Source of the DNA: Obrimoposthia wandeli
Taxonomy: Eukaryota
Assembly (NCBI GenBank): GCA_977020255.1
Contig: CDROCS010001545.1
Location: 62,001 to 126,000 of the forward strand
Length of the DNA stretch: 64,000 nucleotides
Direction of reading: 5' to 3'
The translations under genes were made by a program, and so were the position numbers. The notes under the pieces were generated by a model. That model did no database searches. It was not told where the DNA came from and saw nothing but the letters and a program-made list of their open reading frames with translations. Positions 19,551-61,683 of this stretch are shown one piece after another. Positions within the stretch are counted from its first letter, which is position 1; each line of letters opens with the position of its first letter.

Positions 19551-21881
19551 GCACACCTAAATATAAACTATATTATTTTTTTAAACTTCATTATTATTCT
19601 TTTATTAAAAACTTTCTTAAAAAATGTAATTTATTCATAATAATACAAAGTTTAAAAAAGTCATAATGCCTTATATACCTTTTGTTTACCATGATGTTTA
19701 TATTTGCTGTTCCCAGCTGTTCTTCTGTAGCTATTTTCTAGTCACTTTCATACCTTTAAGCCATTTTCAATTTAGATTATTTGTTATACAGATGACAACA
19801 AATAGCTTATTTTTACGAAGAAATGCTTGCAAAGTAGCATTCCAAGATGATGCAGACCTTAATTGGATCTTAATTTAAATATGACTTTACTATAATTAAA
19901 TTGTGATTCGACTTATAAAACATAAATTATATGAAATTTAATTTCATTAATACTCTTAGATTATTCAATAAATTTTGGTTTCGTAAACACACAACTACTT
20001 CATGTTGAAAATATTTCGATTTTCCAACGCTCTTCTTGTTGAATGGATGGATATTTGCTTAGTTTTCTGTCCTTAGCTGATATATAGCATTCTATGGAAT
20101 GACATTTCTTGGAAATTTTGGTTGATTAGCATATAGTGTAGTTGTTCCTAAGTTCCAGGACCGACACTATATACTACTGATTCGATTAGTTGACCTAGAC
20201 CAAAAAGAATAAAATGCAAGTAAACCTATATTTTTATAAAATATTATTAAAAAATATGTTTTAAAAATGATCAAAAGTGATCAACACTATTATATTACAA
20301 AATATAAGGTAGTAATATAATGAAATTTTATCTTCTCAAAATACATAAAGTTGTAAAATTATGAAACAAGTCTATACCTGCTTTATTATTTGACAAAATA
20401 TATATTTAGAAGAATTGACAGAAATAATACATTATCGAGGTTATTCAATCATTATTTGAAAATGTTTCTGATAGAATGAATATTGCAATACGAATTACGA
20501 ATTAAGCTCAAGTAAATTTATTAATAATATAATCATCTTAACACAATAAAATAACTCACTTTAAATGTATTTATTCTTTAAGAATATGGATATTTTGATT
20601 TTTCAAAAACATTTTGAGTTTGTTCTAAATTAATTTACTTCTTTTTTTAATTTAGCGCCTAACGTTCAATATTTTTTTGAGAATTACTTTACATTAAAAA
20701 ATTATTTGACACTATTTACTGTTATTTAGAAATGTAATATATATATAGAATATTTTTTTAGATAGGTCTGAAATTGCCCATCCTGTCGAGTTTATCCTAT
20801 TTTGCCCTAAAAAAATCTTAACTATAAAACCAACATACTCCTGTTCGGAGTTTAAATTATAAAATGTAATTTAAAGTACAAAATAATAAGAAACAAAATC
20901 CTGATTCAGAAAATTTGCTGGATACCGTAATTACATCATTTTTGAATTGACTATTTGGGGTCAAATATTATTTGTACACTTTAAAATGCTTGGTTGTTGG
21001 TCAAGGGGCCATTGTTGGTGCTGAATGATTGGTGGTGTATGTGGTCTGAATTTTGTATAAAAGCCACAGTCTGATGTTATCAGGTCAGTTTTTGTATTTT
21101 GTTGATGTAATGCAAATAAAGAATAAACGACTAATTTAATTACCTATGCGAGTCTTATGTTGGAGATCTGCATCCTAATGTTACTAAAACTGTTATATAT
21201 TACAGATTCCAGCAGCATGGAAATGTCGTGCCTAACAGAGTAAGCAAAGATTTGAATAAGAAAACATATCTTGGTTGTTCCGATGTGAATTAAAATTCTA
21301 CAACTGAAGCAAAGTTATCAATGGATCAAATTAATATCGAGAAAACTTCTTTTTCGCAATACATTTATGTAATTGTCAGTTATTCTGCTATAGAGCGTTT
21401 GAATGATGTCTATTTCCTCGTATTATTTTAGCTCTTCTGATATTCAATCAGGAACCTCCATATACGAGATCTTTCATACCTTTTCAAATTTTCTCTTTAA
21501 TATAAATAATAAGACTATGATGAGGTCAATCTAATAAAGGTACGCTGCGTCAACTGAACATTCGAATAACGCGTTTTGCAACTTGGTGCTTAACATTATC
21601 CTGCTGGTAGATTACATTATCAGTATCGCTCTTTTAAAATAGGAATTAGGTCATTTACCATTGAATCTTTATATCGTTCTCCATGAAGAGTTTAAAAAAT
21701 GTTTTACATTTTTTTTGTAATATAGAATGAAAAATACACATGGAAATAAAACCATTTTACAATTTGCTCGGGTTAAGATGATTTCGAGTTAGTTCTAAGT
21801 TAGTTTTGAGCAATTCGAATATATAAGCGGTAGTTATCTTTTTTAATGATTTTGCCTAGATTTGACATGTGCCATGTGCAG

Positions 21882-24470: not shown

Positions 24471-25029
24471 CTGGGCAATATTTGATGGGGATTTCGGGAT
24501 TTCATTAGTATGAAATTGTAACTTTCACAAAAACTAATGACTTCTCTGGGTTTTCTAATGGATTTGAAACTTCTAAAATCTTCATCGTATTCTGGCATCG
24601 AGACTTAACATGAACGTTCAAAATTTAATAGAATATTTTGTTACAAAATCAAAGCTTTTTCTTTTGGAAGAAAAATCTTTAAAATTTGTAACCAATTGAA
24701 CAAATTGAGACTTAGATTTCACTTTTAAGTCTTTATGTTTTGAATATAATTGTTATTTTCTAAAGCACATGTTAACATGGATTTTAACCTGTACCTTTAC
24801 ACTTGACGCAGTCTTATAGACGCATTGGCGATAGGAATCCTCATAATAATTGATTGAGTGCATCGGTTGTAATAAAATTTAATTACAATATTTCAAACAA
24901 TATGTAGAATTTACTTTGATTGAATGATAATTATACTAAATGAATTATACTTTGAATTTAGTTGATAATAACTATGGAAAAATAAATTAAAGGTATAACT
25001 TAAAGTTTGGTTTGCAGTGTAAATTTGTA

Positions 25030-25935
25030 TATATGTTGCGTTGAATGTACATAATCACAAATAAATAATTTATATCTGTTTTATAACTATTTTTAACATT
25101 CTTTTAACACCATGAGATTGTTTTTTATTGTATATAAAATATTTTTTAATAAATTTTTAATTTTATAGATTTATTTAAAAATTTAAATATTAAAAAAAAA
25201 TTTAAATAACTCGAAAGAGCTAAAATTACAACCAGGCTAATTGAAGCAAGTAAAGAATCAATCCACTATAATTTTTATAAAAAAGATTAATAAGAAGTTT
25301 AGATAATACATATTGTAGAATTTTATTTTAATTTATTCCAGTAAATTCCAAGAAATTGAATTAGATGTTTGATAGAAGGTCATTGGTGGAAGTTATGAAA
25401 TTGCTATATCTAGTGGTAATTTAAAGAGCCGTTTTAGCAGAAATCAAGTCGAACATGTAACAATAGACTGATTGTACCTGAAAATGTAATTTCTCTGAGA
25501 TCGGTTGTAAAAGAGCAGTCGATAGGGGATGGCCAAAGGTACATTAAATGCTTTTGCAAGGGAGAATGTGTTACAAGACGATGTATATGTGTAAAAATGA
25601 ATTTAAAATGCAATTTAAGATGTCATAATTCACTTATCTGTAGAAATAAATATATTAATATTTTGTTCTTCTTTATTAAGACATTGGATATTAAAGATTC
25701 AAATTATAAATTAATAAATATTTATTAAAAAATATTGAATCATTAAAATCAAATACTTTTTATTTAAAAAATTAAATATTTATAGTTATAAATTAAAATT
25801 TATAATTTAAATTCTCGTATCTAATTAATTTTAAAAAAATAAGTAGAAATATTAATTAAAATAATGTTAAAAAATAGTTATAAAACAGATATAAATTATT
25901 TATTTATGATTATGTACATTCAACGCAACATATAT
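25030..25935 (+). mobile_element. Internally deleted DNA transposon with inverted repeats and a Cys-rich transposase C-terminus (KRBA2/SCAND3-like)
   Basis: ~70-bp inverted repeat at 25030-25100 and 25863-25935. The centre encodes GDGQRYIKCFCKGECVTRRCICVKMNLKCNLRCHNSLICRNK* (25525-25652). True ends not resolved. Confidence 0.6.
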
Positions 25936-31880: not shown

Positions 31881-33520
31881 TTAACATTCTACTTCCTATA
31901 AATGTTTATTATTAAACAAACTTTATAAATCATTTTACCTGTTATAATTTAATCAATAGCAATACAATGAAATTTATAAATATTAATAGGGATATCTTTT
32001 CGGGAGAATCTGAACTTCCAAAGATATTAATTCTAATAATTAATAGTCTTAATCAAAGCTTCTGCGAAATATTTTCACAAAATATACTGAAACTTTATTA
32101 ATTTGAATTTACATTTATTTATCAAGTTATTGAAGTATAATTTAAAAACGTTTGATGTGAAACTAGAGATATTGTGATCTTTCTGAGACTAACCATATAT
32201 TAATAATGAAATCAATCATATTGATCAGTATATTAAACACTCTTTGTCGTGTATACATTATATTACATATTCAAATATATTAAAAAAATTTAATATTTTC
32301 TTTTTGTAACTGATTAAAATATGGATGTTTAATTTTCTAAATCGCTTTGGAATCAAAATCTGATTGATGTTTACAAATCATAGTTTAAAGTTCTATCTTT
32401 TCCAGTTATATAAGTGGGTAGTTGTCTGGTCTAATCTACACTATATTCAATTGCTCGAGCAGTTTACAACCGCCAAATTGAAAGATAGAATTATTGAATT
32501 TATAAAGAGCGAGTTAGAGCATGTGACTGTGATTCTTGGCCTACCATTTAGATTAAAATAGCTTCTGAAATTCTCAACAGAACTTATTTTAAACTTACTG
32601 ACACTGAATAAGTTCTCCCGTTTACCGACTGTACCATACCAATGTCAATAACTCACTATAAAATACTTCATTAAAATTTATTATATTCTAAAGGTAAAGT
32701 CTACATGTTTTTACAAAAACTTAAAGCACAATCGACTCTCCCACTCACCTTCAGAGTGTGAAATGGATTTTGAGCCCATTTGAGAGTCCTAAAACTGTGT
32801 AGCTTCAAGTGCGTTCTGTGAGGTCTAAGGGTTATCACGGCCTGTGGAGTAGTATATAGTGTCGGTACTAAACCAAAGGAACCTAGCCCCTCCCCGAGGT
32901 AGGGGGGGCGGCTAGGTTCCTTTGGTTTAGTCCCAACACTATAGTGGCTTAAAACATTTCTGTATACTGTCATTTTTTCGAAAATGTCGTTAAAATGTCG
33001 AAAGTTTAGACATAATGTCGTTAAAAATTGTTTAAATTGGCTTAAAATGACTCAAAAAATTTCTGGTGTTGTTAGCATGATTTTGAGACTTGACAAATCA
33101 CGCATACTAAACCAATGGTAATAGCCCCCCTCCGGGGAGTGGGAACCTTTTACTGCAAAACCATTTTTGGCGTTGTATGCGTGATTTCAAGACCTATTTT
33201 CACATATGGCGCTAAATATCTTACCGTTTAAAACAAAAAGTGATTTCAAGACCATTTTAAAATATGGCTCTAAATATCTTGCCGTTTAAAACAAGAGTAG
33301 ATTTTGAGTAGATTTTAAGTGGTCAAAGTCTCCCTTACGGAGCCTCCTAAGAGGGAAGCCCTTCATCCGAAGACCGGGCAGCACCTTTGGCAAAGATTAT
33401 ATTTATATTACTTTTGTTTATAGTTAACCTTTAAAGAATAATAAAATCAATTAATTATTTATTCATATGATAAATAATATTAAAAATAAAATCAATAAAT
33501 CATTTATTCATATGATTACA

Positions 33521-34030
33521 TTAAACTCTCTTAAGTCCTTCAGTAATTCTCCAAATATGCTTCTGTCTCCCGAGTCTATCGAATTTGAATCCTTGAATTT
33601 GAATAAATAAAATTCAATATTTGCTTTTAGAAATTTCTTCTTCAGAGTAAGTATATATTCCTTTAAACATATGTTCATCAGCTTTAATAAAAGCACTAAA
33701 GTTTTCAATTTTGATATCTAATTTCCTTCTTCGGAAAATAGCATTGATATTGTTAATATCATTTTGATGGATCCTTGAAATGACATAGTCAAACTTGGAC
33801 TTTGTTAGCATAACAGGGTATTTTAATCCAAAGGTAACAGGCATCTTGAGAAAGTTCATTGTATAACTGAAATAAGGTACAGATTCTTTGAATAGGTCTT
33901 CTGTTTCTCCATTAAAAATATCCTCTAATTCTGTATCATCAGAATCTATCTGTACAACTTTGCTTGTATTTAAAATTTCATTCTTCCTCTTCTTTGTGCT
34001 CTTCAAAATCGGTTTTTGTAAATTGAACAT
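33521..34030 (-). pseudogene. Polinton accessory ORF of unknown function with one premature stop
   Basis: 138-aa ORF (33614-34030) continues in frame past TGA as ILFIQIQGFKFDRLGRQKHIWRITEGLKRV*. The same stop is present in the mirror copy. Confidence 0.55.
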
Positions 34031-34151
34031 GATGAATGAGAGTAAACTGAAATGTTTCGGTAGTTATAGTTGACTACTTGAATCTGATTGGTTGATTCTC
34101 ATTGGATAATTTGAAACTATATATGTTTGTGACATCATCAATTTTTATACC
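34031..34151. promoter_or_regulatory. Putative bidirectional promoter
   Basis: 121 bp between divergent ATGs (34030 and 34152), with two ATTGG (CCAAT) boxes at 34087 and 34101 and a TATATAT at ~34118. Confidence 0.45.
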
Positions 34152-34870
34152 ATGATGAAAATAATCAATATAAATTATAAAGGTAAATTTAAGGGAAGTG
34201 TTAGTCACTTACTTTTTCGATCAAAGAAACCTATACAACAGCGGTTCCCAACCTTTCTGGTGCGGTGACCCCTTGATAACATTTGCCAAGTTGCGGTGAC
34301 CCCAAGAATATGGGTTAATTGACTATTATAATTAGAGAATAGTGATATTACCGCGAGAATACAACACAAGGACATTCGGTATCATAAAACAACTTTTTAA
34401 AAGGCCTTGTTGCCTTAGGAGACTCCAGGAAAATTGTCAGGCGACCCTTATTGGGACAGGTTGGGAACCGCTGCTATACAATATGTTGAAAAGTTAAAGG
34501 ATTATACTATAGTTATATTTCCAACAGGTATTATTATTATTATTATTAATACTACTATTTAGGTTCATCTAGAATTATGGGTTGCAAACAACCAATCAAA
34601 CATGCTCAAAATATAGAAATTGAACGTATTCAATCTCTAAGTATCCTTGTGAATATCAACAAGAAGGTTAATTTGTATAAGATATCTATGAAAATGGGAA
34701 GAAATTGTATGTTTGAACCAGAATTGTTTCCAGCACTCAGAATTTTAAAATATAATCCTCTATGTGTTAATGTGTTTGCTAGTGGAAAAGTGATTATTCA
34801 TAGTATTAAAGATTTTGATTATCATTGTCAAGTCGAGTCTATTGTATTTTTTCTTGAAAGTTTCTTATGA
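34152..34870 (+). pseudogene. Polinton-encoded TBP (TATA-binding protein)-like gene, two exons, disrupted by a MITE
   Basis: Removing the MITE plus one TSD (34239-34481) and a GT-AG intron (34528-34562) gives an open 146-aa frame with two TBP-like repeats: KIININYKG...YTIVIFPTG|SSRIMGCK and IQSLSILVN...FEPELFPAL...VNVFASGKVII. Confidence 0.8.
34239..34473. mobile_element. hAT-type MITE, 235 bp
   Basis: TIR CAGCGGTTCCCAACCT...AGGTTGGGAACCGCTG; 8-bp TSD CTATACAA (34231-34238 and 34474-34481). Confidence 0.95.
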
Positions 34871-35798
34871 ACAAATATATGTTTTTTAATTTTTTAAAAA
34901 TGCTTGTCAATTATATACTTCATTATATAACTGTTGATGATGTTTTAGTTAGACGAAAAGTAGATTATTCTAGAATGAAAGTTTTACAGTCGAAATATAG
35001 ACGTGAAAGTGAAAGATTAAGATCTTTAATTATGAATTTTAAAGGGAAACAATCTGTACATAATTTAGCTAAAACTGGATTTTATAAACATTATGATGAT
35101 TCAACTGATAAAGTAAAATGTATATATTGTCAAGGTGCAATATCCGAATGGGAATGGTATCTTAAACCAATGAAGCAACATATGAAATCTTTTCCTACAT
35201 GTCCATTTCTTTTAAAGTTAAATGTTTCAAATGTACCAATAATTGAAACTATGGTCAAGCAAATTGATTTTGATACATCACCATTGATTGAAAAGTATAT
35301 GTATCAGATATTGTTGTAAAATTACCTGATATATGATATTCAAAAAAGTTTAAGACCCTATAATGATGCTAATGTTATTTAGAAAAATGAATCAGATTGT
35401 ATAATTGAATATCCTTTAACTACGGAAAATTCGACATGTTGATGGATACCAACAACATCGGATAATTGAAAAGGTTTTTCACGAAAGATAGAATAAAATC
35501 TGTTTTAAAATATAAAATGATGCGATATGGAGAATACAATTCACTATTTGAAATGATTTGTGATTTAAATAATTTAGAAATAAACCCTGAAAAACAATAC
35601 ATAAATATATTTTCATACATGTTAAAAGAACCTGAATGTGTAGTATGTTTGAATAATCATATTGAAGTAGTATTTCTACCATGTGGACATGTAAAATCAT
35701 GTATTTCATGTTCCATAAGGTTACATTCATGTCCAATATGTCGACATATAATTGAAAGGAGAGTAAGAAATGTAAAATTTCATGGTATAAACAATTGA
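34867..35798 (+). pseudogene. Inhibitor of apoptosis (BIR, UBA-like, RING), split by stops and frameshifts
   Basis: BIR: ESERLRS...LAKTGFY...DKVKCIYC...EW...PMKQHMKSFPTCPF. UBA-like: FFTKDRIKSVLKYKMMRYGEYNSLFEMICDL. RING: CVVCLNNHIEVVFLPCGHVKSCISCSIRLHSCPICR. Confidence 0.85.
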
Positions 35799-35992
35799 AA
35801 TTTGATGATGATTTATATAAGAATGGAGAAAAACGATAAATTAATTGATAAAATTGTTCGCACCCATGTCTACAGAGATCTCAAATGGAAAAAGGATTTT
35901 GAAAATTTCATTCAGATTAATCGTTCAAATATGATGTATATAACCTTTTCTGTATCAATTTTTAATTCGTTTTTGGTGTATATATTAATAAA

Positions 35993-36649
35993 ATGCCTAT
36001 AAACAATATTATTATTCTTATTATTATGAAACTTAAAAATGATGCAGTATATCAAATAGTAGGACCTAGTGGTAGTGGTAAAACACATTTTGTAACTAAA
36101 TTATTACAAAACAATCAAATGTTTAATAATCGATTTAATAAATTTTATTGGCATTATGGTGATGTTTGCAAATCCCGGTTAACTAAAAGTGAATTATGTA
36201 AACTTAAAAACATTAAATTTATCAATAGTTTTGATCAAAACTAGTTAAAACGGTTAAAACGTAATGATGTTATAGTAATTGATGACTTGTATGATGAAGC
36301 ACATAAAGAGTCAATCTTTAATAATTTATTTACAAAAATAGCAAGACACAACTGTGTTACCGTAATTTTCATTACTCAAAACCTATTTCATCAAGGCAGT
36401 AAACATATAACACGTAAATTAAACGTATATTACTTGGTTTTGTTTAAGAATCCTCGTGATCAAACGGTTATTGACTATGTTTCACGTCAAGCATTTCCTA
36501 ATAACAAGCAATATTTGATAAATTCATTTCAAGATGCAACTAAAAATCCTCATGGTTACTTGTTTCTTGATTTTACTCAATCATATCCTGATGAATTGAG
36601 AATAAGAACCGATATTTTCAACAAATGTATGGTGTATAAACAAAAATAA
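35993..36649 (+). pseudogene. Polinton packaging ATPase (A32/FtsK-like) with one premature TAG
   Basis: Walker A GPSGSGKT, in-frame TAG at 36242-36244, Walker B VIVIDDL, then RH.....IFITQNLF and YLFLDF motifs. Confidence 0.9.
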
Positions 36650-36788
36650 TATTTCTTTAAAATGAGGATTAATTGGTGCACTTTTACCGATAGTTGCAAC
36701 TTTAATCAGTCCCCTACTTGCTAGAGCTGTTGCCTAAAGTATATGAGAAACAACTTACCTAATTTTGATTTAAAAATAAATTGTTGTA

Positions 36789-37789
36789 ATGGAAACGATA
36801 TGGTACGATCCCGAAGACCCAGTTGGATACAGCGGCGTTGGAACTCTATCAACAAACACTAAGTCGAGCCAAATGAAAACTCAAACATGGTTGAGCAATC
36901 AACTGGCGTACAGTCTGAACAAACCGATGCGAAAAAGGTTCCCGACACGATCGTACAAGACTAGTGGCCTTAATAATTTATGGCAAATGGATTTGATGAA
37001 AATGATACCTTATGCAAGTATAAATAGCGGTTACAAATATATATTAACATGTATTGATGTATTTACTACATTTGGGCGTGCTGAACCAGTAAAATCAAAA
37101 TCCAGTAAAGATATAGATGCTGCCATCAAAAATATGATTGATGTTGTACCCGATAATGTACAAACATATGCTGGAAAAGAGTTTTATAACAAACATGTTA
37201 AAGCACCTTTTGATAAATTAGGAGTAAATCATTATTATGTGTTTTCACACTTTAAAGCGGCCTTGGTTGGACGATTTAATAGAACATTAAGAGATAAATT
37301 AAAGAAACATTTTGTTGTAATTGGATCAAAGAAATGGGTAAAGGTACTACCTAAACTGTTAATTTCATATAATCACTCACCACATCGCGGTTTAGGTGGT
37401 AAGAAACCTATTGATATTTCATTTGATGATTGGTTTTCTCGTAATAAAAATCAATAATAAAGAAACCCAAATACAAAGTTGGAGATTTTGTTTGCATATC
37501 ACGACTAAGTACAACACCTTTTATTAAAAATTTCGATAATAATTGGAGTGATGAAGTATTTGAAATAGCAAAAATCAATTTACATGCAAACCCTGTAATG
37601 TATAACATCATATATGAGTATAAAAGTCCGATATTTTATGAGCAAGAATTACAAGTTATTGATAAACCAAAAGTATATAGGATACAAGAATTCATTAAAT
37701 CTAAAGGTCGAGGTAAGAATAAACAATATTACGTAAAATGGCATGGATATAAAACACCAACATGGATAAATGCGAACCAGATAGAGTAA
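36789..37789 (+). pseudogene. Polinton retroviral-like integrase with C-terminal chromodomain, inactive
   Basis: WQMDL and YILTCIDVF are present. QTD has become QTY and VERFNRTL has become VGRFNRTL. Frameshift near 37455, then KPKYKVGDFV..NWSDEVF and chromodomain YRIQEFIKSKGRGKNKQYYVKWHGY...W. Confidence 0.92.
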
Positions 37790-39160
37790 AAAAATTCTAT
37801 ATTGTATTACCATCTAATAGTTGTCCAAACACTCAACATAATAATACCGCCTCGAAATTTATTGTTGATTGGGAAAATTCGATAGAACTTCAAGGTGAAT
37901 GGGAAGTTGCATTGACAGAATTTACTTATAGTAATACACCCGTTATTTTACACAAGGGTGATGAAATAAATTATAAGGAAACGGTTAGTGCTAAGAAAAC
38001 CGATACTGTCTCATTAAATGTTGAATTTAAAGATGTGGAAATTCATAATGATAAGCATAATATAAAAAAAAAATTTAAAAATTTCGATAATAATTGGAGT
38101 GATGAAGTATTTGAAATAGCAAAAATCAATTTACATGCAAACCCTGTAATGTATAACATCATATATGAGTATAAAAGTCCGATATTTTATGAGCAAGAAT
38201 TACAAGTTATTGATAAACCAAAAGTATATAGGATACAAGAATTCATTAAATCTAAAGGTCGAGGTAAGAATAAACAATATTACGTAAAATGGCATGGATA
38301 TAAAACACCAACATGGATAAAAGCGAACCAGATAGAGTAAAAAAATTCTATATTGTATTACCATCTAATAGTTGTCCAAACACTCAACATAATAATACCG
38401 CCTCGAAATTTATTGTTGATTGGGAAAATTCGATAGAACTTCAAGGTGAATGGGAAGTTGCATTGACAGAATTTACTTATAGTAATACACCCGTTATTTT
38501 ACACAAGGGTGATGAAATAAATTATAAGGAAACGGTTAGTGCTAAGAAAACCGATACTGTCTCATTACATGTTGAATTTAAAGATGTGGAAATTCATAAT
38601 GATAAGCATAATATAAAAAAAAAATTTAAAAATTTCGATAATAATTGGAGTGATGAAGTATTTGAAATAGCAAAAATCAATTTACATGCAAACCCTGTAA
38701 TGTATAACATCATATATGAGTATAAAAGTCCGATATTTTATGAGCAAGAATTACAAGTTATTGATAAACCAAAAGTATATAGGATACAAGAATTCATTAA
38801 ATCTAAAGGTCGAGGTAAGAATAAACAATATTACGTAAAATGGCATGGATATAAAACACCAACATGGATAAAAGCGAACCAGATAGAGTAAAAAAATTCT
38901 ATATTGTATTACCATCTAATAGTTGTCCAAACACTCAACATAATAATACCGCCTCGAAATTTATTGTTGATTGGGAAAATTCGATAGAACTTCAAGGTGA
39001 ATGGGAAGTTGCATTGACAGAATTTACTTATAGTAATACACCCGTTATTTTACACAAGGGTGATGAAATAAATTATAAGGAAACGGTTAGTGCTAAGAAA
39101 ACCGATACTGTCTCATTAAATGTTGAATTTAAAGATGTGGAAATTCATAATGATAAGCAT
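37526..39160 (+). repeat. 551-bp tandem triplication spanning the integrase 3' end and the minor capsid 5' end
   Basis: Units start at 37526, 38077 and 38628. ORFs 37762, 38313 and 38864 are spaced by exactly 551 bp. Confidence 0.97.
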
Positions 39161-40013
39161 AAACCTGTTAAATTTAATATAAAGAAAATTTCAAAAGTAG
39201 AAATAAAATCATCAAAACGCATTGCTAATCTTTATTGTGAGTTTCGTACATATGGCAAAGATAAAATGGAAAATGTACTTTTTATAAAATCTTTAAATAA
39301 ACAGAAATTCTATATAAAACTATCGAAAAAAATCAAAAAATCAATTGGGTTTCCTAAATAATCAATTAAACCATGAAAATTACTTAGCATATGATGATAA
39401 TGGTATTTTAACTGCGCAAAAATCCATACATCATAAATATGTATCAACAAAATTCGAATATTATCAATTAGGAGATAAAAATATCAATTCAAAAATCGTG
39501 TTTGACAACGATTTCAATAGTACAGATTTGAATGCTCTAGTTAAATACGTTATATCTAAATGTAATCATATTTTTAGCATGTTTTATATTGAAAAAGATA
39601 AATTCATTAAATTCAAGTTAAAATCAAATATTTCAAGTATAATGTTTAATAATCGTATGGCATTTGTACTGGGTCTTAATAAAACAGAATTTACAGGTGA
39701 CGGTAAAGGTATTCCTCAATTAATATGTGAGTTTGATCACATGTACCTGTATACCAATTTGATAGAGTCTATAAATGTTGGTGGTGTAAAAATACCATTG
39801 TTAAAATCAATTTGGTTAGATAAAAACAAAAAATATGGTGATATCGCAAAAATTACAATAATTAGACTAATGTATGTTCCTGTAATATCAACATCTATTT
39901 CAAATATTGAAGTAAATATTCGCAATGATAGTGGAATACCGATAAACGTTGCTCATAACGCAAAAACTAGTTTAACACTACATTTCCGAAAAGTTATGTA
40001 TAAACAAAATTAA
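38864..40013 (+). pseudogene. Polinton minor capsid (penton-like) protein, frameshifted near 39350
   Basis: N-terminal FYIVLPSNS...NTASKF...LQGEWEVALTE and C-terminal MYLYTNLIE...VGGVKIPLL...MYVPV...IEVNIRNDSG...LTLHFR are typical of Polinton minor capsids. Confidence 0.8.
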
Positions 40014-40031
40014 ATCATGTAATCGTTAATA

Positions 40032-40415
40032 ATGTCTCTATTTGATGTGTATAGTACAACCCAAACAGGTGGTGAACTACCTTACTTTGTTGGAAAACAA
40101 TATGGTTAAGGTTGGTTGGAAGTTTTGGGACGAATTGCGTTTCCTATACTATCCTGTTTAGGACGAATTGGTGCAAAAACACTTACAAATGTAGTAATGA
40201 ACGATAAACCAATTTTGAGTGAACTAAAATCAAATGCAATATGTGAAGTACCAGGTTTGTTGCCTGAAGCAACAAAAGCTGCTACTCAACTAATGACTGT
40301 AATAAAGAAAAGTCGAAAACGACCAGCAGAAATTCCTGTTGAAATGAAAGAAGAAGTACAGAAAGGTAGAGGTAGTATAAACAAACGTAGAAAAATAGGA
40401 ACAATATTTGAGTAA
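40032..40415 (+). pseudogene. Small basic putative core protein with QxGG/QxGxG motifs; premature TAA at 40107
   Basis: MSLFDVYSTTQTGGELPYFVGKQYG*GWLEVLGRIAFP...; basic C-terminus; lies between the minor and major capsid genes. Confidence 0.65.
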
Positions 40416-40418
40416 GAA

Positions 40419-40649
40419 ATGGCATGTGCAAAATCTGAACTGTGTTTATTTGATCGTCCACTAACTCAAATTGCTATAGAAAATGGATGTTTTGAGAATA
40501 TTTTCCCGGTTAATAATTATAATAATAATTTAACAATTATTACCGGTAGTAATATTAATACAATCGAGTTTAATATCCATTCTAGTGAAACAGACACTTC
40601 AGAATTTGATCATTGTAATGTCGGTTCAATTTCCCTTAGTAGAAATTAA
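40419..40649 (+). pseudogene. Major capsid protein, internally deleted and truncated
   Basis: CAKSELCLF...TQIAIE...IEFNI is the MCP N-terminus. It is joined directly to TDTSEFDHCNVGSISLSRN, which matches TDVTQFDNLNVGSVTLSRN in the MCP C-terminal ORF at 61684-62193. Confidence 0.8.
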
Positions 40650-41176
40650 AGAGTTGAAAATTGAAATTGAGAAGTTAGAACTTCTCATCTTAAAACGTCA
40701 ACTACAAAATATAAAGTTGTAAATTTTTTTTGTTGTTGTTATCTATTTATTCACTTGTATATATTAATACAACTTTTGTGTTTAATCAATTTATTTATTA
40801 TATAGGATTATTTTGATTAGTTGACCAATTATATTGAAGTTAGGTTTTTATATAATCGAAACACTTTAGTTTTAAAAATCATTTCATCATTATGACTCTA
40901 AGTACTTTAGACATGTTATGCACTCTTCGGATTAACCTTAAAGAAGACATTTTTAAACTATATACATCTCAATATTTTTCATTATATTGTGCTCCAGAAC
41001 TTTTTAAATTAAGGAGAATGGAACTTTACCAATATCATCAACGTAAGATTTTTATTTTTTTAAAAATATTTAATGTACATTTAATAGTTATGGGAGATAT
41101 TCAATACTACTATCATCATGAGATGCCGATTTGTAATCATATGAATAGATGATTTATTGATTTTATTTTAATTTTA

Positions 41177-44100
41177 TTTGTTGATAGAGTTCCAACGCCG
41201 CTGTATCCAACTGGGTCTTCGGGATCGTACCATATCGTTTCCATTACAACAATTTATTTTTAAATCAAAATTAGGTAAGTTGTTTCTCATATACTTTAGG
41301 CAACAGCTCTAGCAAGTAGGGGACTGATTAAAGTTGCAACTATCGGTAAAAGTGCACCAATTAATCCTCATTTTAAAGAAATATTATTTTTGTTTATACA
41401 CCATACATTTGTTGAAAATATCGGTTCTTATTCTCAATTCATCAGGATATGATTGAGTAAAATCAAGAAACAAGTAACCATGAGGATTTTTAGTTGCATC
41501 TTGAAATGAATTTATCAAATATTGCTTGTTATTAGGAAATGCTTGACGTGAAACATAGTCAATAACCGTTTGATCACGAGGATTCTTAAACAAAACCAAG
41601 TAATATACGTTTAATTTACGTGTTATATGTTTACTGCCTTGATGAAATAGGTTTTGAGTAATGAAAATTACGGTAACACAGTTGTGTCTTGCTATTTTTG
41701 TAAATAAATTATTAAAGATTGACTCTTTATGTGCTTCATCATACAAGTCATCAATTACTATAACATCATTACGTTTTAACCGTTTTAACTAGTTTTGATC
41801 AAAACTATTGATAAATTTAATGTTTTTAAGTTTACATAATTCACTTTTAGTTAACCGGGATTTGCAAACATCACCATAATGCCAATAAAATTTATTAAAT
41901 CGATTATTAAACATTTGATTGTTTTGTAATAATTTAGTTACAAAATGTGTTTTACCACTACCACTAGGTCCTACTATTTGATATACTGCATCATTTTTAA
42001 GTTTCATAATAATAAGAATAATAATATTGTTTATAGGCATTTTATTAATATATACACCAAAAACGAATTAAAAATTGATACAGAAAAGGTTATATACATC
42101 ATATTTGAACGATTAATCTGAATGAAATTTTCAAAATCCTTTTTCCATTTGAGATCTCTGTAGACATGGGTGCGAACAATTTTATCAATTAATTTATCGT
42201 TTTTCTCCATTCTTATATAAATCATCATCAAATTTCAATTGTTTATACCATGAAATTTTACATTTCTTACTCTCCTTTCAATTATATGTCGACATATTGG
42301 ACATGAATGTAACCTTATGGAACATGAAATACATGATTTTACATGTCCACATGGTAGAAATACTACTTCAATATGATTATTCAAACATACTACACATTCA
42401 GGTTCTTTTAACATGTATGAAAATATATTTATGTATTGTTTTTCAGGGTTTATTTCTAAATTATTTAAATCACAAATCATTTCAAATAGTGAATTGTATT
42501 CTCCATATCGCATCATTTTATATTTTAAAACAGATTTTATTCTATCTTTCGTGAAAAACCTTTTCAATTATCCGATGTTGTTGGTATCCATCAACATGTC
42601 GAATTTTTCCGTAGTTAAAGGATATTCAATTATACAATCTGATTCATTTTTCTAAATAACATTAGCATCATTATAGGGTCTTAAACTTTTTGAATATCAT
42701 ATATCAGGTAATTTTACAACAATATCTGATACATATACTTTTCCAATCAATGGTGATGTATCAAAATCAATTTGCTTGACCATAGTTTCAATTATTGGTA
42801 CATTTGAAACATTTAACTTTAAAAGAAATGGACATGTAGGAAAAGATTTCATATGTTGCTTCATTGGTTTAAGATACCATTCCCATTCGGATATTGCACC
42901 TTGACAATATATACATTTTACTTTATCAGTTGAATCATCATAATGTTTATAAAATCCAGTTTTAGCTAAATTATGTACAGATTGTTTCCCTTTAAAATTC
43001 ATAATTAAAGATCTTAATCTTTCACTTTCACGTCTATATTTCGACTGTAAAACTTTCATTCTAGAATAATCTACTTTTCGTCTAACTAAAACATCATCAA
43101 CAGTTATATAATGAAGTATATAATTGACAAGCATTTTTAAAAAATTAAAAAACATATATTTGTTCATAAGAAACTTTCAAGAAAAAATACAATAGACTCG
43201 ACTTGACAATGATAATCAAAATCTTTAATACTATGAATAATCACTTTTCCACTAGCAAACACATTAACACATAGAGGATTATATTTTAAAATTCTGAGTG
43301 CTGGAAACAATTCTGGTTCAAACATACAATTTCTTCCCATTTTCATAGATATCTTATACAAATTAACCTTCTTGTTGATATTCACAAGGATACTTAGAGA
43401 TTGAATACGTTCAATTTCTATATTTTGAGCATGTTTGATTGGTTGTTTGCAACCCATAATTCTAGATGAACCTAAATAGTAGTATTAATAATAATAATAA
43501 TAATAATACCTGTTGGAAATATAACTATAGTATAATCCTTTAACTTTTCAACATATTGTATAGCAGCGGTTCCCAACCTGTCCCAATAAGGGTCGCCTGA
43601 CAATTTTCCTGGAGTCTCCTAAGGCAACAAGGCCTTTTAAAAAGTTGTTTTATGATACCGAATGTCCTTGTGTTGTATTCTCGCGGTAATATCACTATTC
43701 TCTAATTATAATAGTCAATTAACCCATATTCTTGGGGTCACCGCAACTTGGCAAATGTTATCAAGGGGTCACCGCACCAGAAAGGTTGGGAACCGCTGTT
43801 GTATAGGTTTCTTTGATCGAAAAAGTAAGTGACTAACACTTCCCTTAAATTTACCTTTATAATTTATATTGATTATTTTCATCATGGTATAAAAATTGAT
43901 GATGTCACAAACATATATAGTTTCAAATTATCCAATGAGAATCAACCAATCAGATTCAAGTAGTCAACTATAACTACCGAAACATTTCAGTTTACTCTCA
44001 TTCATCATGTTCAATTTACAAAAACCGATTTTGAAGAGCACAAAGAAGAGGAAGAATGAAATTTTAAATACAAGCAAAGTTGTACAGATAGATTCTGATG

Positions 44101-45323
44101 ATACAGAATTAGAGGATATTTTTAATGGAGAAACAGAAGACCTATTCAAAGAATCTGTACCTTATTTCAGTTATACAATGAACTTTCTCAAGATGCCTGT
44201 TACCTTTGGATTAAAATACCCTGTTATGCTAACAAAGTCCAAGTTTGACTATGTCATCTCAAGGATCCATCAAAATGATATTAACAATATCAATGCTATT
44301 TTCCGAAGAAGGAAATTAGATATCAAAATTGAAAACTTTAGTGCTTTTATTAAAGCTGATGAACATATGTTTAAAGGAATATATACTTACTCTGAAGAAG
44401 AAATTTCTAAAAGCAAATATTGAATTTTATTTATTCAAATTCAAGGATTCAAATTCGATAGACTCGGGAGACAGAAGCATATTTGGAGAATTACTGAAGG
44501 ACTTAAGAGAGTTTAATGTAATCATATGAATAAATGATTTATTGATTTTATTTTTAATATTATTTATCATATGAATAAATAATTAATTGATTTTATTATT
44601 CTTTAAAGGTTAACTATAAACAAAAGTAATATAAATATAATCTTTGCCAAAGGTGCTGCCCGGTCTTCGGATGAAGTGCTTCCCTCTTAGGAGGCTCCGT
44701 AAGGGAGACTTTGGCCACTTAAAATCTACTTAAAATCTACTTAAAAAATCTACTCAAAATCTACTCTTGTTTAAACGGCAATATATTTAGAGCCATATTT
44801 GAAAATGGTCTTGAAATCACCTTTTGTTTTAAGCGGTAAGATATTTAGCGTCATATGTGAAAATAGGTCTTGAAATCACGCATACAACGCCAAAAATGGT
44901 TTTGCAGTAAAAGGTTCCCACTCCCCGGAGGGGGGCTATTACCATTGGTTTAGTATGCATGATTTTCAGGCCAAATGTAGGCCAACTCTCAAAATCCTGC
45001 AAACAACACCAATATAGTTTTGCAGTAAAAGGTACCCCCCGGGGGACCTATTACCATTGGTTTAGTATGCGTGATTTGTCAAGTCTCAAAATCCTGCATA
45101 CAACACCAGACATGAGTTGTATAATTTTTTGTTGTTGAGTCATTTTAAGCCAATTCAAACAATTTTTAACGACATTCTGTCTAAAATTTAGACATTTTAA
45201 CGACATTTTGTCGAAAAAATGACAGTATACAAATTTTTTTAAAGCCACTATAGTGTTGGGACTAAACCAAAGGAACCTAGCCCCCCCAGTTCCTTTGGTT
45301 TAGTACTGACACTATATACTACT
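41177..45323 (-). repeat. Right arm of the ~4-kb inverted repeat, with mirror copies of the ATPase (41384-42040), IAP (42235-43167), TBP-like gene (43164-43885) and ORF 44007-44516
   Basis: Near-identical to the left arm internally; differences seen are one silent SNP, homopolymer indels and one extra ATT unit. The outer ~0.6 kb is more diverged and has an extra subterminal repeat. Confidence 0.97.
43564..43798. mobile_element. Mirror copy of the hAT MITE in the right arm
   Basis: Same TIRs; TSD TTGTATAG (reverse complement of CTATACAA) at the homologous position. Confidence 0.95.
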
Positions 45324-48300
45324 CTGTGGTGGAGGTGGCGAGTGGATTAGACGAGACATATCCATCTACTCATATCAGCTGCATGTTTAAAACGGGAAAC
45401 ATTGTTCGTATTTTATAATATTTGATTTTTAAAATGATTATTATTTTAGACAGAATATTTAGACAGAATATCTATAAATCATAACCGAAAAATCAAGTAT
45501 TTATAATTTTCAATAATAATAATTTTAAAATAACTTATAATAAATCATAAAATCCAACAAAATAACTTTTTTGAACAATGTATACAAATTTTGTTTATAA
45601 AATACAGCCAGTTTTAATGTATGCATTTTGCACACATTTTATGGATGGAATCTATGCAGCACTACTGCCAGTGTTAAATAAATTCTTCTAGCGTCCTCGA
45701 GACAATTTTTACTGAAATTACAAACGATTTTGAAGACACACATTTTTCGTCTTAATTAAAATAGACAAATTTATTCTAAAATATTTTTTTTTCAAGCACA
45801 TAGCTTATACATAAATGAGTTGAAATATACGTATTTGGAAATATTACACGTTTAACTTTTTAGCTACTTAAAAAAAGAATTTTAAAATAAGTAACAATAC
45901 AAAAATTTTATTAAGGGACATTTAAAAAATATTTTAAATAGCAAATTTCATAAAATTTGACAGTTTTAATAAATATAATTAAATAATATTTAGTATACAG
46001 TAATCATTATTAGTTAAATTAGGCTACTTATAACTTTAAGTAAATTATTAAACAATATTTAAATGTTGAAATGTTACTGTAGAACTTGTTAGAAAAAAAA
46101 TTTTTTTGAAAAAATCAATATAAAATTTACTAATAAGATTTTTGTAGCATTGTAAAATGATAATGTCGTTTATTTACAATATTCGAAATCAGATATCAGA
46201 TCAAATTTGTTAGCGCCAGTGTCGTAGTGTTGGAAAATAGTCGACAGCACCATGCCGGTGTTACGTAATAATAAAAGGAAAATTAAAAAGTTAATTTTTT
46301 TAACAAATTCATATTTCATTGCCCATTCTGTCAATATGAATCCATATTAAAACGTAGTAGAACATTAAATTTGTTTAAGGACGTTAAAATAGGTTTTATT
46401 AAAAAAATATAAACCGATATCAAGTCAATAAAATTTATTACAAGCTCTTTTCGTAGTTTGAATGAGGTATTCAACCAAATAAGATCATTCCATGTTGACA
46501 AACATAATTACGCTCCAAACTCAGAAAATGAATGTTGACATAAGTAGTACTTTCACATACCATATATGATTTTGAATTACGATAGATGATTATTTTAAAA
46601 TATGCAAGTATGGTAAAGTAGTTTTGTTCATGTATTTAATATTATTTAACAACTTATTGTCAATAATTTAAATAGGAACAATTGTTTAAACTAATCATTG
46701 AAAATAAGAAGAGAAACAAATAATACATAAAAATTACAAACAATAAAAGAAGAACATCAATTAAAATATGATTACTGCAATTTTTATTCAATCTTTTTAA
46801 ATCTAATTCTTTTAATTTCATACTCAGTTTTTGAGATCACGTGGTTATGACAAAACGAACAGTTACCGAAATTAGTTGAAGTCTTTAAAGGTATCAGCCA
46901 CCATTGGGGTATTTTACGACCCTGCCTGTTGATGTGCACGTTATAGTAAAACTTACAGAGAAGATGGCTAGCGCATCCTGCAACTTATACTGAGCACTAT
47001 TTGCGATGTTATGGCTGAACAATGAGCCTCTTTGATTTAGTTGTAAAGGCACTTCAATTGAAAAATTCTGAAAAATTCTGTCACATAATATGCAGAAGAC
47101 ATAAATAGATCAAAGCTTGGTGTATCCAGAATGTTTTCTGTTGACAACACAGATATAAAAACGGCAAAAACATGTAATGTGACATAACCAATAGTGACTG
47201 TAAGTAAATAACTACCATCTAAAGTGATTAATATTTCAAACTATTCCACAATTTTGTTCTCAATGTAAATATTTCGTTTTTTAACTAGTATTAAATTGAA
47301 CTATTTATAAGTAGCAATTTACTATAGACTCACAATACTAGAAAACATTGTTGTCAGAGTGAGGATACAGAAACCCTTGGAAAATATTGTGTTTAGGTTC
47401 ATCCTAAATCGACATTAAAGAAAGAATATATTGCAGAAAAGAGAGCCTTAAGTCAAGGTCTGATCGACACCGTTTGCAGCAGTATCAATTTGAGATTTGG
47501 GATAAAGATTAAGTAGAAAATTAATTAAGAGATACAATCGAAAAAGTATTAAAATCAACAATGTTTAGACTCACTTTACATATTTCTTAGAACAAATAGC
47601 AAAACTAGTTTAATAATCCACATTTTAAAAACAAATTAACTGGATAAGCCTTCCTGAATAATTTTTCTTGTCATATGAGGAAAACATTGAGTCAATGTAA
47701 TTCTTTTACTTTTTTTCTTAATATCATCAAAACTATCTAGTTAACATAAACACTTTCGTCTGCGGGTTAATGAATAGGTATTTGTTTATAACTCAAATAT
47801 GTTGATAAGCGTCATTTGTAATAATTTGCAACCTAACTTTATAGCTTCTTAAGATTCCAATTTTATAAATTTATAAATTATAATTTTCCAAAATCGATTG
47901 CTTACTATCGTGATCGTTTCCAGTAAACAAATTTGAATTGAGATTGTTATAATAAAATGATTGCCAATATTGTTTGATCTGTTCTTCTATTAGTTATTAG
48001 GTACAATCTGTGAAAAAACATGAAATACATCTATTGTTGCAAATGTGCGCAAGGTATTTCAGCATTCAGTTTAGAAAGATTCAAATATCTTCTTAAGATG
48101 TTAAACTGAATAAAGGTTCTTTAAACATTGGCATTTCATAATCTGTGTATGTTACATCATTTTTCATATTAAACGCAGTTTTTATCTCTGATGTTACAAA
48201 AATGTTACAAAGTACTATGATAACTTAATTAAATGAGGAAAAAATATTAAAAAAACAAAAAGTTTTATTGGTTATCTAAATACATTTTAGCAATGGATGT

Positions 48301-52400: not shown

Positions 52401-53269
52401 ATTTTTTATCTCACATTTCTAGTGTAAATTCTAGAAAAATTAGTTAAGATACAGTTAAGTAGTTATTTAAAAATAATTAATTCACTCCCTATTTATAAAT
52501 ATGCTTAAAGAACTTGTCATTCAAACGAAACGGCATTACTTAATATAAAAATGTTGCATTTTACTGCAGCATTTGAAACTATAAATCATTAAAGATTTAT
52601 CTGATTGAGAATTAAATTTTAGAATATTCGATAATTGATAGCTAGAATATCCTTTGTTTAATATTCAATCTTCAAATGTTCAATTTTGAGATGGACATTT
52701 TATATGTTTTACTATATCTTTACCAAAACGAGTATTTCTTCATGTCAATCTCGAACAAAGCAATAATGCACATCGCATGTCCATATCCGAGCAGTTATGT
52801 AAGTTAAGCAATCGCAATCGTCCTGATAAGCACTCATGCGATCGCTCATACAGATCCAGTAGTTTCAGTCAACTGAACATCAACTAAACTGAAGCTCATG
52901 CGTTCCAAAATCGCGTTCAGCGTATCAACCGAAGAATAGAACGCATTTTTACGATGTTCGTCAGTGTTTTACGAGGATTCCAGATTCAACGACGAATCCG
53001 CAACTTACAGAATCTTCTAAGATCATTTAACTTATTTTAATACTAGAAAATCAAACTGTAAGCGTAAATCTGTAGATTAATCATCATCAGATGGTAATAA
53101 AGTTATAAAACTAGAAACAATTAATAATATTTCTGTTGAACTGGTTGAAATTTTTTAATTTCAAATAGTTTATAGTTTTTAACGTCCTATTAGTCAAACA
53201 TTTTCAACTTAATGGGTTATGATATTCATCATATTTTAAAATTTGCAAAATAAAAAGATAAAATTATTC

Positions 53270-55076
53270 AATCATACCCAAGTCTAGTGAAAAATTCATG
53301 GCTCTCAAAATAGAATTATCAGCTGGAACATTGAAATTTTTAGATTCGTATGCTTTTACAACAACTAGTTTTGAAATATTGGTTAGTTATCTTCCAAGTT
53401 CACCATATACGTCAAGATATTTTAGAACTGATTTGATATCTAATAAAGGTGCTTTTCCTTATGAATATATTTCTTGTGAATCTAAGTTGTATGAAGATAG
53501 ATTGCCTCCAAAATGTGAATTTCCTAATAGGGTTACAGATGATAAATATAATTTAGCTCACACAATGTGGACAAAACTATGTTGCACTAATATTAAAGAC
53601 TATATGATGGAATATATGCGTCTTGATGTATACTTACTTTGTGATGTATTTGAGTCTTTTAGACAAAATGTTAGATCTGATGATAATCTTGAGGCTTTTA
53701 ATTTCTATAGTATTCCAGGTTTTAGTTGGTGTGGTTCAGTAAAATCATTAACAAACAGGGTAGAATTGATGCATGATCCGGAAATGTATAATCTCTCTGA
53801 AGCAGGTATTAGAGGAGGTATGACTTTTGTCAATAAACATTATTGTATGACCGATGATAGTACATAACTTCTCTATATAAATATAAATAACTTATACGGC
53901 TGGGCTTTAAGCCAACATTTACCAAATATGTAATTTAAGGGGATGTATGCTAATTTGATGATATTTTGAATTTAGTTGGAAGTAATAAGGATTTGAGTAA
54001 AAACGTATGGGGTTTTCTGGTTGAAGTAGTTTTACATATTCTAGATCGTATATATAATAAGGTTGATAATTTACCTATTGAACAACATAAGATGTGTCCA
54101 CCAAATTAAAAACTCCTATATTGATTTTAACACATAATGAAATAAAGCCTTTCATAATACATTTCCGTTTACTACAATTCTATTATTTCTTTATGCCGAA
54201 ATCATTAAAAATTCATAGGGTTATTCGGTTAAGACAAGCATCCGTTTTAAAATAATATATAGATTTTAATTCAAACAAGAGGGCAACTAGTGTCAATAAG
54301 TTTGAATATGAATTTTATAAGTTGAAAAATAATTCCGTTTACGATAAAACGGTTGAGAATCTTAAGATGCGGCTTGATATTAGATTATGTAATAATAATA
54401 AACGGTTTGAAAAATTAGTTTTGAGTGCTTGGTTTAAATGTCATACTCAAATAAATGATGATTTAAACTTAGTTTTTATGCAGAAACAGGAGATATGTTT
54501 AGACCAGCCTGAGTATATTGGTCAAGCCGTACTTGATCTCTCTAAATGACGTATGTATCAATTACAGTATATTTAGCTTGAACGGTATAGGAAAATTTTT
54601 AATTGTAGTATTCGAATTGTAGCTATGGATACAGATTCTTATTTCCTTGAGTGTGTGAATATTAATAAGGATAAATTACTTAAAGAAATGATTAAGGATG
54701 GGTATTTAGATAAGAGTAATTATCCTAAAACACATATCTTGTATTCGGAAAATTTTAAACTGTAATTGGAAAATATAAAGATAAAAGTGAGAGTACTGTA
54801 TAAAAGGAGTGGGTTTTCTTAAAACCAAAATGTTATTAACTTCAAAATAAATTAATGGCTAAGGGTATTTCTTTGAAACAAACTAAATTAAGACATCAAG
54901 ACTACCTCAATTGTTATGAAAATGAAGAAATTATTAGTGTTAACCAGTCACGTATAGCATCGGTTTACCATCAGCTTCACATAACCTTTACCTCTAAAGT
55001 TGCTTTAAAATGTTTTGATTATAAAAGGAGATGGGTTAATAAGAATAAAGCTTATGGACATTTCAGTTTAACTTAA
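53270..55076 (+). pseudogene. Protein-primed family-B DNA polymerase (pPolB) of a Polinton, decayed
   Basis: FLDSY, KGAFPYEY, DVYLLCDVFESFR, GIRGG, NNLYGWALSQ.LP, NNSVYDKTVEN, YIGQAVLDLSK, MDTDS, KPKCY, AKGI and DYKR...AYGHF occur in order, with stops. Confidence 0.93.
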
Positions 55077-55588
55077 CAATTTGTAAATAATATATATTGA
55101 TTTTGTTGTTGTCTGATTTTATATTTAATGTTGTTGTATATTATTATTTTTGTTGTATACTATCATTTGTGTGCATTATTACACACACTCACATACACTT
55201 TCATTTGTATATATATAATACAATTTTTGTCTTAAATTGATAGTAGGTGGATGTGTCCGGTCTAATCCACCCCCACGGGGGGGGGGCTAACACTGTCTTT
55301 TAAAATCGTGCAAGTTTGTGGAGTGAAATTTCGTGCATATGTGTGGAGTGAAATTTCGTGCATGTGTGTATGGAAAAAATATTCTCTTGAAAAATTGCAA
55401 AATTAACGAAAAGAAATTGGGGAGGTCCAAAATATGTTTTGCCCCTTCCGGGGCAAATTACCCCATCTCCCACCCACCCCTTCGGGGCGGGCTCTATTCT
55501 CGTTATCCAGGGGCGAGAATAACTACAAAAAACATACCCTCCAGGCGCTATAGTATTTTTCTTTCACTTTACCCATCTACCTCTCACT

Positions 55589-56436
55589 ATGACAACTATA
55601 CATGTAGATGACACATACTCCACAATTGAGGTAAATTATTTATATGTTTAAATTTAATTAAGGTTTTTTGTTGTTGTATGAACCCGTCCAGATAATTGAG
55701 GAGACATGGGGAGAAATTACTCTTTTCCCCAAGAAACGGACAAACTGAGCAGAGGTGAAGAAGACGAAGCGCTTGAAAAAATGTCGCACCACGAAGCTCA
55801 ATTCTTCTGAGGCGGTGATTGGCCAGCAGGAGATTCTCCCATCTCTAGGTGAACGACAGGCCAATTCTGTACGAGAGAATACATGTCTCTCCGATCGAGA
55901 TTAGTCCGCCACCGAGTCACTGAAACCTGTAAGAGACATCACCAGCTTCATTGAGTATAAAACAAAAATTGGCCAGGGCTTGGGAGACTGCTTCTCCTCG
56001 TCCAACAATCAGCCAGAACTTCAAGAGGGCCTGGGATGAAGCTGGATTAGACGAATTCCTGGCTGAACTGGATACTCCGACAATGCTTCCAGAATTGCGA
56101 GGGCAACAGGATGCCGTCTCACGTCAGCTTCAGCGTGAGAAGGAGGAGAAACTGAAGAAAGCTCCACGGAAGAGGAAGGCTACGACTTCTACGTCGGGAC
56201 CATCAACATCGACTGCACCTCCTCCCAAAAGGTTGCGGCAACTACTACCAAAACCTCAGGGAACGTCAATTGCTGCACAACAATCGGTGAAACCGAAAGA
56301 GAAACCTGGCCGAACAAAGAAGAAGGAGGCTGTACCGTTTACTCCGATAAAACGCAGTCGGAGGGATTTCAATGAGGATGATCCCAATGATGACTTTATG
56401 AAGATTTTTAGAAATAATATAATTTATAAAAAATAA
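55589..56436 (+). pseudogene. Spliced accessory gene next to the left TIR of family B (acidic and basic low-complexity protein)
   Basis: MTTIHVDDTYSTIE|GTAAATT intron (55631-55691) to a CCAG acceptor; broken frames lead into the 161-aa basic ORF 55951-56436. Confidence 0.5.
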
Positions 56437-58129: not shown

Positions 58130-58636
58130 AAACACTTTCTTCATGTAAATCCCCGACTATTTGAAATAATGACTATGGTAAGAAACTTTATTTTTTATTT
58201 CTTTATTAATATTTATTTTTAGATTACGTGTAACCTGTTTCCAGCATATTGTGGTGCTTCGGCTCCGCATGGAGGAGAGTCCTGCATGGAGATAATGTCC
58301 GCATACTATCGGACAAAGTCTAATGGGCTTCTATTCTTTGTTTGCCCCTTCTGCAGAACAATGGAGGAGTAGGAGTTTCGAGACTACTTCGGTTAACATC
58401 GAGCTCATCTATCCTGTTTCACGGCCAACAACAAGAAGAGGGCTATCGTGCAATTGGTGCGCGATTCACAGGTTGCTCCAGCTCCTGCCCATGTTCCAGC
58501 TGCAGTCGTTCAACCCGTTTACGGTCCTGCGATTAGTCCTTTTCTCCCGTCTCCTGATTCTGCAGTTGCCTCATCCACTCAAATGAATAACAATGAGTGG
58601 ATGAACGACATATCCCAAGAAGATTTTGAGATGTAG
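58130..58636 (+). pseudogene. Spliced accessory gene with a PHD-like Cys/His cluster and acidic tail
   Basis: ATG|GTAAGA 45-nt intron (58178-58222), then ITCNLFPAYCGASAPHGGESC...FVCPFC...NNNEWMNDISQEDFEM*, in one frame with two internal stops. Confidence 0.5.
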
Positions 58637-58966: not shown

Positions 58967-58988
58967 AAATAAATATGTTATAGTTAAG

Positions 58989-61640: not shown

Positions 61641-61683
61641 TAAAAATTAATAAATATAAATTTAAAAAATGTCTTACTTCATT

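Follow-up and report, generated by a model that had tools for sequence, protein, structure and literature searches.

The window analysed here comprises 64,000 nucleotides of Obrimoposthia wandeli (assembly GCA_977020255.1, contig CDROCS010001545.1, positions 62,001 to 126,000 of the forward strand) and carries a Polinton-derived element at 32848-45323. This element is a dead deletion derivative of a Polinton, which bears a 4-kb inverted repeat and has no function of its own. Self-comparison of the window returned a single large inverted repeat, 33091-36856 versus 44968-41177 (98.9% identity), from which a more diverged match continues outward. The element consists of two arms, 32848-36856 (4009 bp) and 41177-45323 (4147 bp), around a core of 4320 bp. 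Both termini carry the (AGT)2 motif and are flanked by identical duplications of a 6-bp target site (TSDs; 32842-32847 and 45324-45329), in agreement with the Polinton/Maverick criterion of a 6-bp TSD and (AGT)2/(AG)3 ends. Arms of these lengths, genuine ends and a perfect TSD had been claimed in an earlier note on this DNA and are confirmed. The core, described there as a unique 4.3 kb, was correctly sized but is not unique, since a 551-bp unit is present in about three copies at 37524-39162.

For comparison, contigs of prokaryotic genomes were scanned, and 20 loci (L001-L020) of 70 candidates were confirmed; 8 of the 20 supplied open reading frames (ORFs) for comparison with the window. These loci are Polinton-type contigs in records of prokaryotic metagenome-assembled genomes, including the near-complete 12.7-kb L002, and they are probably eukaryotic contamination of those genomes. 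The best of them reach 46-61% identity in the integrase; no close full-length relative was found, and none of the 20 matches the ends of the element. L002 encodes, in order, a polymerase on the opposite strand, an ATPase, a small ORF, an integrase, a gene in the minor-capsid position, a PZ-like protein, the major capsid protein, a protease and TBP, with Pfam matches to Pox_A32 (ATPase), rve/chromo (integrase) and Peptidase_C5 (protease). The gene order from ATPase to capsid is the same in L002 and in the studied element, in which the Pfam domains TBP, BIR, RING, P-loop, rve and chromo were detected (14 element ORFs among the 28 proteins scanned).

Several genes of the left arm are broken, with lesions that recur in the right arm. 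An outward-pointing accessory ORF (33521-34063, minus strand) contains a stop codon at 33614-33616 in both arms, beyond which the frame continues to the boundary of the terminal inverted repeat (TIR). The earlier note had called this stop a nonsense codon shared by the arms; it is indeed shared, but it is not demonstrably premature because no homologue of the ORF was found among 13 candidates. [quoted passage not shown] The MITE, which we take to be of hAT type from the length of its TSD, has an identical copy in the right arm (43564-43798), TSD included, as had been noticed before. The TBP-like gene is followed by an IAP-like gene (34858-35798, plus strand; Pfam BIR, E 7.6e-13, and RING, E 3.5e-13), fragmented in both arms, and by the packaging ATPase (36026-36649, plus strand), which is 56% identical to the Pox_A32-matching ATPase of L002. 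A stop codon at 36242-36244 interrupts the ATPase in both arms and is premature, as previously claimed, because a 214-residue relative aligns through its position at 56%. The retroviral-like integrase with its chromodomain (36789-37789, plus strand; Pfam rve and Chromo) is interrupted by a split near 37450, and no more than its first ~68 bp recur in the right arm. Among 505 candidates, 391 relatives of the integrase piece were found, the best at 67%.

Beyond the integrase, the core retains parts of the capsid module. The tandem unit of 551 bp mentioned above (37524-39162, plus strand; copies 99.7% identical) spans the integrase end and the start of the next gene, and contains 2 private single-nucleotide polymorphisms (SNPs), no indels and the same filler at both junctions; it represents a second recent repair-like event within the element. 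The next gene (38885-40013, plus strand), in two frames, is 33-41% identical to the post-integrase ORFs of L002 and L001 and is presumably a minor capsid gene, judged from gene order. It is followed by a stop-broken ORF (40033-40415, plus strand; 44% to an L002 ORF), which we name PZ/core-protein-like, and by a remnant of the major capsid gene (40419-40649, plus strand). In this remnant of 76 codons, residues ~10-62 are fused to ~290-305 before the gene is cut off at 40646, the ORF stopping at 40649. It is 36% identical to an L002 protein that falls in DJR-like (double jelly-roll-like) clusters (score 0.98), while searches of PDB and PHROGs were uninformative and gave no PDB sequence match for the capsid. 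At least two capsid deletions occurred, and they end ~530 bp short of the inverted-copy junction, indicating that loss of the capsid, protease and polymerase module was separate from the duplication. As the earlier note stated, pPolB and protease are missing: no pPolB similarity was detected in the element at E<=0.1 with the L002 polymerase and the other polymerase pieces of the window as queries, and no similarity to an adenain-type protease was detected anywhere in it. The element is therefore filed as a dead deletion derivative and not as an autonomous Polinton/Maverick. The position of the polymerase varies: in L002 the gene lies to the left of the ATPase, in the other Polinton remnant of the window it follows the protease, and in the studied element it may originally have lain on either side.

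The original left TIR covers 673 bp (32848-33520, plus strand), within the Polinton range of tens to ~1500 bp, and begins at the (AGT)2 terminus. Its tip (32855-32943) is a near-perfect palindrome of 90 bp with a predicted DNA fold of -37 kcal/mol, and the version at the right tip is 21 bp shorter. Two old internal units of ~112 bp, both still present in the right TIR, have been merged into a hybrid in the left one, which lost one of the two by recombination. The old outer right TIR (44677-45323, minus strand) differs from the left one, over the outer 513 bp, by 18 SNPs and 9 indels, and these 27 differences persist to the very tip. They are the product of decay in place, of which the hybrid left TIR is an example. 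Many differences between outer TIRs had been reported before; the length given for these repeats, about 0.5-0.6 kb, falls short of the original 673 bp.

The inner part of the arms behaves otherwise. Across 3496 bp (33361-36856) only 1 SNP and 4 indels were found, in line with the near identity over ~3.5 kb noted earlier, and the divergence is thus 0.03% in the inner arm versus 3.5% in the outer TIR. The inner arm is ~120-fold less diverged, and at least 13-fold on the 95% limits. The comparison of divergence along the arms that the earlier note had proposed was run, and divergence is not uniform: it switches sharply, with the best change point at 33360 (2 dlnL = 66 for SNPs; Fisher p = 1e-15). 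The stretch 33361-33474, although within the TIR, contains no differences (p = 0.018 at the outer SNP rate, 0.0025 counting all events), which suggests a short overwritten tract. Three 1-bp differences between the arms cluster in the IAP-like gene at 35289-35425 (a span of 136 bp out of 3496; p about 0.004, calculated by hand) and could reflect either slippage in repair synthesis or a local consensus error. Since the MITE and the stops of the ATPase and accessory ORF are common to both arms, the copying postdates the decay of the element, and the order of events proposed earlier stands.

How the copy was placed can be read from a small piece of TIR on the core side of the junction. Positions 41132-41176 (minus strand) are the stranded inner end of the original right TIR, identical to 33475-33520 of the left TIR at 43 of 46 positions, whereas the counterpart within the fresh copy (44517-44562) matches the same left interval at 46 of 46. 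The alignment of the stranded piece scores 75, against 43 for the best of 300 shuffles and 35 for the best match in the flanks, arm or core, and the piece starts precisely where the TIR would resume after left position 33474. The fresh inverted copy of the left arm (41177-44676, minus strand, versus 33361-36856) meets it at a non-homologous junction with a 3-nt microhomology (41176-41179). At its other end, the copy hands over to the old right TIR somewhere in 44563-44676. Because the stranded piece lies on the core side of the junction, the right TIR was split and 3386 bp (net insertion 41177-44562) were inserted at the homologous position, with nothing replaced; before the insertion, the element measured 9090 bp. 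One junction thus lies inside TIR homology and the other is a 3-nt microhomology join, both ends of the presumed break are retained, and the copy is nearly identical to its template. The claim that the inverted copy had replaced the polymerase half is contradicted by the surviving inner end of the right TIR: the copy is an insertion, and the deletions are separate.

The DNA between the capsid remnant and the stranded piece (40650-41131, plus strand) is likely native right-end DNA. It contains an outward-pointing ORF of 86 codons (40892-41152) that ends inside the TIR and mirrors the accessory frame on the left, whose end coincides with the boundary of the left TIR. ORFs as long were found in 7 of 2000 shuffles, the observed one being longer than those of 1993, and homologue searches with its 86-residue product returned none. 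A link of 40646-41131 to DNA downstream of the other polymerase remnants of the window was considered and rejected as AT-rich chance: 1 of 8 comparisons beat all 200 shuffles, but when 678 real tiles were used instead, it was outscored by one unrelated tile, and the overlapping tile came fourth.

A homologous junction and a microhomology join, combined without loss, are the signature of homology-initiated synthesis ended by end joining. The reading we favour, with a probability of about 0.7, is a break in the right TIR of an already dead copy, followed by synthesis on the left arm and microhomology end joining; the break, the repair pathway and the template of the copy are what we infer. A Polinton would have integrated and decayed in place, losing most of its major capsid gene, acquiring the MITE and the stops, and letting its TIRs drift 3.5% apart, while the protease and polymerase deletions would belong to the same decay phase, here or elsewhere. 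Much later, a double-strand break may have struck the right TIR ~46 bp short of the inner edge. Of the two resulting ends, the outer one would then have paired with the left TIR 8 kb away, on the same molecule, the sister or the homologue, and been extended along the left arm. Annealing back would have failed and synthesis would have overrun by 3.4 kb, probably because only ~46 bp of diverged homology lay on the far side. The end would finally have been joined by the 3-nt microhomology, as in synthesis-dependent strand annealing (SDSA) ending in end joining. The same product would arise in the opposite direction, with microhomology priming from the inner end as the first step and annealing in the TIR as the last, and the two directions are indistinguishable from the product. 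The repair model requires a break inside the TIR; chance alone would place a break in the right TIR with p 0.14 and in the final 46 bp of that TIR with p 0.009. The earlier note had proposed that fold-back copying or gap repair extended the TIR inward; the gap-repair half of this proposal comes close to the explanation preferred here, and the copy-back half does not survive.

Several observations weigh against this reading. The evidence is one locus in assembled sequence, with no insertion-free allele for comparison. Two very young duplications lie within 6 kb of each other. Elsewhere in the window no near-identical repeat exceeds 150 bp, and three of the five near-identical repeats of at least 60 bp lie in the element; such a concentration fits local fragility and local artefact alike. 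In addition, 4 of the 5 inner differences are homopolymer or microsatellite indels that resemble sequencing errors, and the spectra of inner and outer differences are distinguishable only at p = 0.13. The native status of 40650-41131 also depends on the TIR piece and on an ORF without homologues.

These points bear most directly on an artefact, in which the 41176/41177 junction was produced either by a chimeric long read or by a fold-back chimera during whole-genome amplification, the assembler then regaining the right flank through the TIR. Inverted chimeras primed on matches of 2-21 nt are the main artefact of multiple displacement amplification (PMC1855051; this and the other sources cited are drawn on in excerpt), and the 3-nt inverted join falls in that range, though real repair shares this feature. 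The near-identical arms, the error-like indels and the second fresh duplication nearby, the 551-bp triplication, also suit an artefact. Nevertheless, a fold-back should leave a single junction running into the flank of its template, whereas here the sequence passes from the copy into the diverged right TIR and on into the unique right flank. An artefact would thus have to involve another switch, back into the diverged TIR, and the first breakpoint would have to fall in the TIR by chance (p 0.009-0.14). The three clustered 1-bp indels are unlike scattered errors, and the private SNPs, indel-free units and identical filler junctions of the triplication argue for accurate sequence and real repair. 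An artefact is on balance unlikely, though it is the rival to be taken most seriously.

Replication-based explanations fare worse. It is quite improbable that over-copying took place on an excised, TIR-paired intermediate that tolerated mismatched ends, and that the palindromic derivative has since re-integrated or been amplified by a helper; if true, the locus would hold the trace of a hypothetical panhandle intermediate and of a mobile, gene-duplicating defective Polinton. Still less probable is viral copy-back in the strict sense, where an excised element in a TIR-paired panhandle copied back its left end and the defective genome was re-integrated or moved in trans. A TIR-paired single-stranded replication intermediate has been proposed for Polintons (PMC4196379), and the perfect TSD and the presence of both termini suit this route. 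However, copying of one genome end (PMC13506859) should leave arms that match to the tip, and the 27 old differences in the outer 513 bp are at odds with the copy-back-like defective genome suggested in the earlier note. The stranded TIR piece marks an insertion and not the replacement of an end, and the integrase, ATPase and capsid genes were already broken. The perfect TSD would be expected anyway, with p 0.7-0.8 even at the old divergence of the outer TIRs, and is thus no proof of recent integration. Least probable of all is crossing-over between TIRs that inverted the interior, followed by a non-homologous join of inverted and normal alleles into a palindrome: in C. elegans, inversions have been linked to the TIRs of Polintons (PMC11414722), and 1 SNP with a few indels could be allelic differences, but two independent breaks are needed, one of them exactly at the TIR crossover point, which is less economical than one break.

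Besides the studied element, the window contains further Polinton remnants. A second decayed Polinton (55242-62413) has a TIR family of its own (80% over ~110 bp), and no matching TSD was seen; it retains accessory ORFs, a deleted polymerase, a protease and the capsid C-terminus and lacks the integrase/ATPase half. It was considered as the missing half of the studied element and ruled out, since the TIRs differ and the capsid stretch common to both is only 63% identical. Just upstream of it lies a third remnant (52650-55076) with a fragmented polymerase (Pfam DNA_pol_B_2), 46-56% identical to the polymerase at 60313-60688. Short termini of the studied element's family were found at 58908-58940 (about 30 bp), within the second Polinton and directly ahead of the truncated polymerase there, and at 20144-20178 (18 bp), so that the family has been busy here. 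The studied element is itself inserted about 47 bp inside a terminus (45324-45370) resembling the TIR family of the second Polinton, a case of Polintons nested in Polintons, and short matches to the subterminal repeats of that family occur at 10532-10602 and 9091-9135. Other repeats of the window (2167-4788, 25029-25935, 5451-5684 and 6374-6554) comprise inverted pairs (283 bp at 88% and 80 bp at 96%) as well as tandem arrays built from units of 29 and 50 bp. A fragment of eukaryotic large-subunit rRNA lies at 417-556 (minus strand; E 6e-18). An ORF with proline and glutamine runs (13624-14247, plus strand), without a meaningful Pfam match, contains a motif that we take to resemble the eh1 repressor motif and is possibly an exon of a host transcription factor.

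Intact vertebrate Mavericks have TIRs of 46-1447 bp, and 96% of loci are degraded (PMC8097293). The studied element resembles them in its 6-bp TSD, (AGT)2 termini, chromodomain-bearing integrase, A32-like ATPase, putative capsid genes and degradation, and its original 673-bp TIR falls inside the surveyed range. It differs in lacking pPolB and protease, in having all core genes broken, and in having arms that effectively measure ~4 kb, nearly three times the survey's longest TIR. A closer parallel is provided by Galileo, for which a TIR break repaired on the other TIR was proposed to copy internal sequence and so extend the TIR (PMC3573991). For instance, a Galileo copy in D. willistoni has TIRs of 4246 and 4680 bp, and transposable-element insertions in one TIR were carried to the other (PMC4168063). 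As in such extended copies, sequence inside one TIR of the studied element is found inverted inside the other, the TSD is kept, and secondary insertions are present in both arms. Galileo, however, is a cut-and-paste transposon of the P superfamily, whereas the integrase here is of rve type and no P-superfamily transposase is present; the copy here takes in four genes, and both junctions can be placed to the base thanks to the stranded TIR piece. In Drosophila, products of SDSA that ends in end joining have been observed at P-element breaks (PMC2895639), and these likewise combine homology-initiated synthesis with microhomology joining; those products used the sister as template at the same site and were incompletely filled, in contrast to the inverted over-copy from the other TIR considered here. 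With copy-back or snap-back defective viral genomes (PMC13506859) the element shares its palindromic outline and the retention of both ends, but these arise in viral replication, mostly in RNA viruses, with one end copied, whereas the element carries an insertion between old, differing ends.

According to PMC3573991, an earlier report (its ref. 12, Jurka et al. 2007) exists of inverted-repeat expansion in Polintons. No Polinton with the present anatomy is described in the literature searched, which excluded the founding Polinton papers and does not imply absence from print. Kapitonov and Jurka reportedly described in 2006 a zebrafish Polinton, non-autonomous and with TIRs that had grown to about 3.5 kb, said to be multi-copy and explained by replication; the studied element, unlike that case, is a single dead copy with aged outer TIRs. 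Most likely, it is a new and unusually well-resolved case of a known process, TIR extension by chromosomal repair, and not a new kind of defective virus. Only if the same junction turned up at further loci would it tell anything new about the biology of Polintons. If real, it would be a base-resolution record of TIRs growing by kilobases without transposon activity, in which the stranded TIR piece shows insertion at the break, as the Galileo model predicted. Giant TIRs or palindromic Polintons in assemblies would accordingly be no evidence of replication, and TIR identity can badly understate the age of an element, as the contrast between the inner (0.03%) and outer (3.5%) parts of these arms illustrates.

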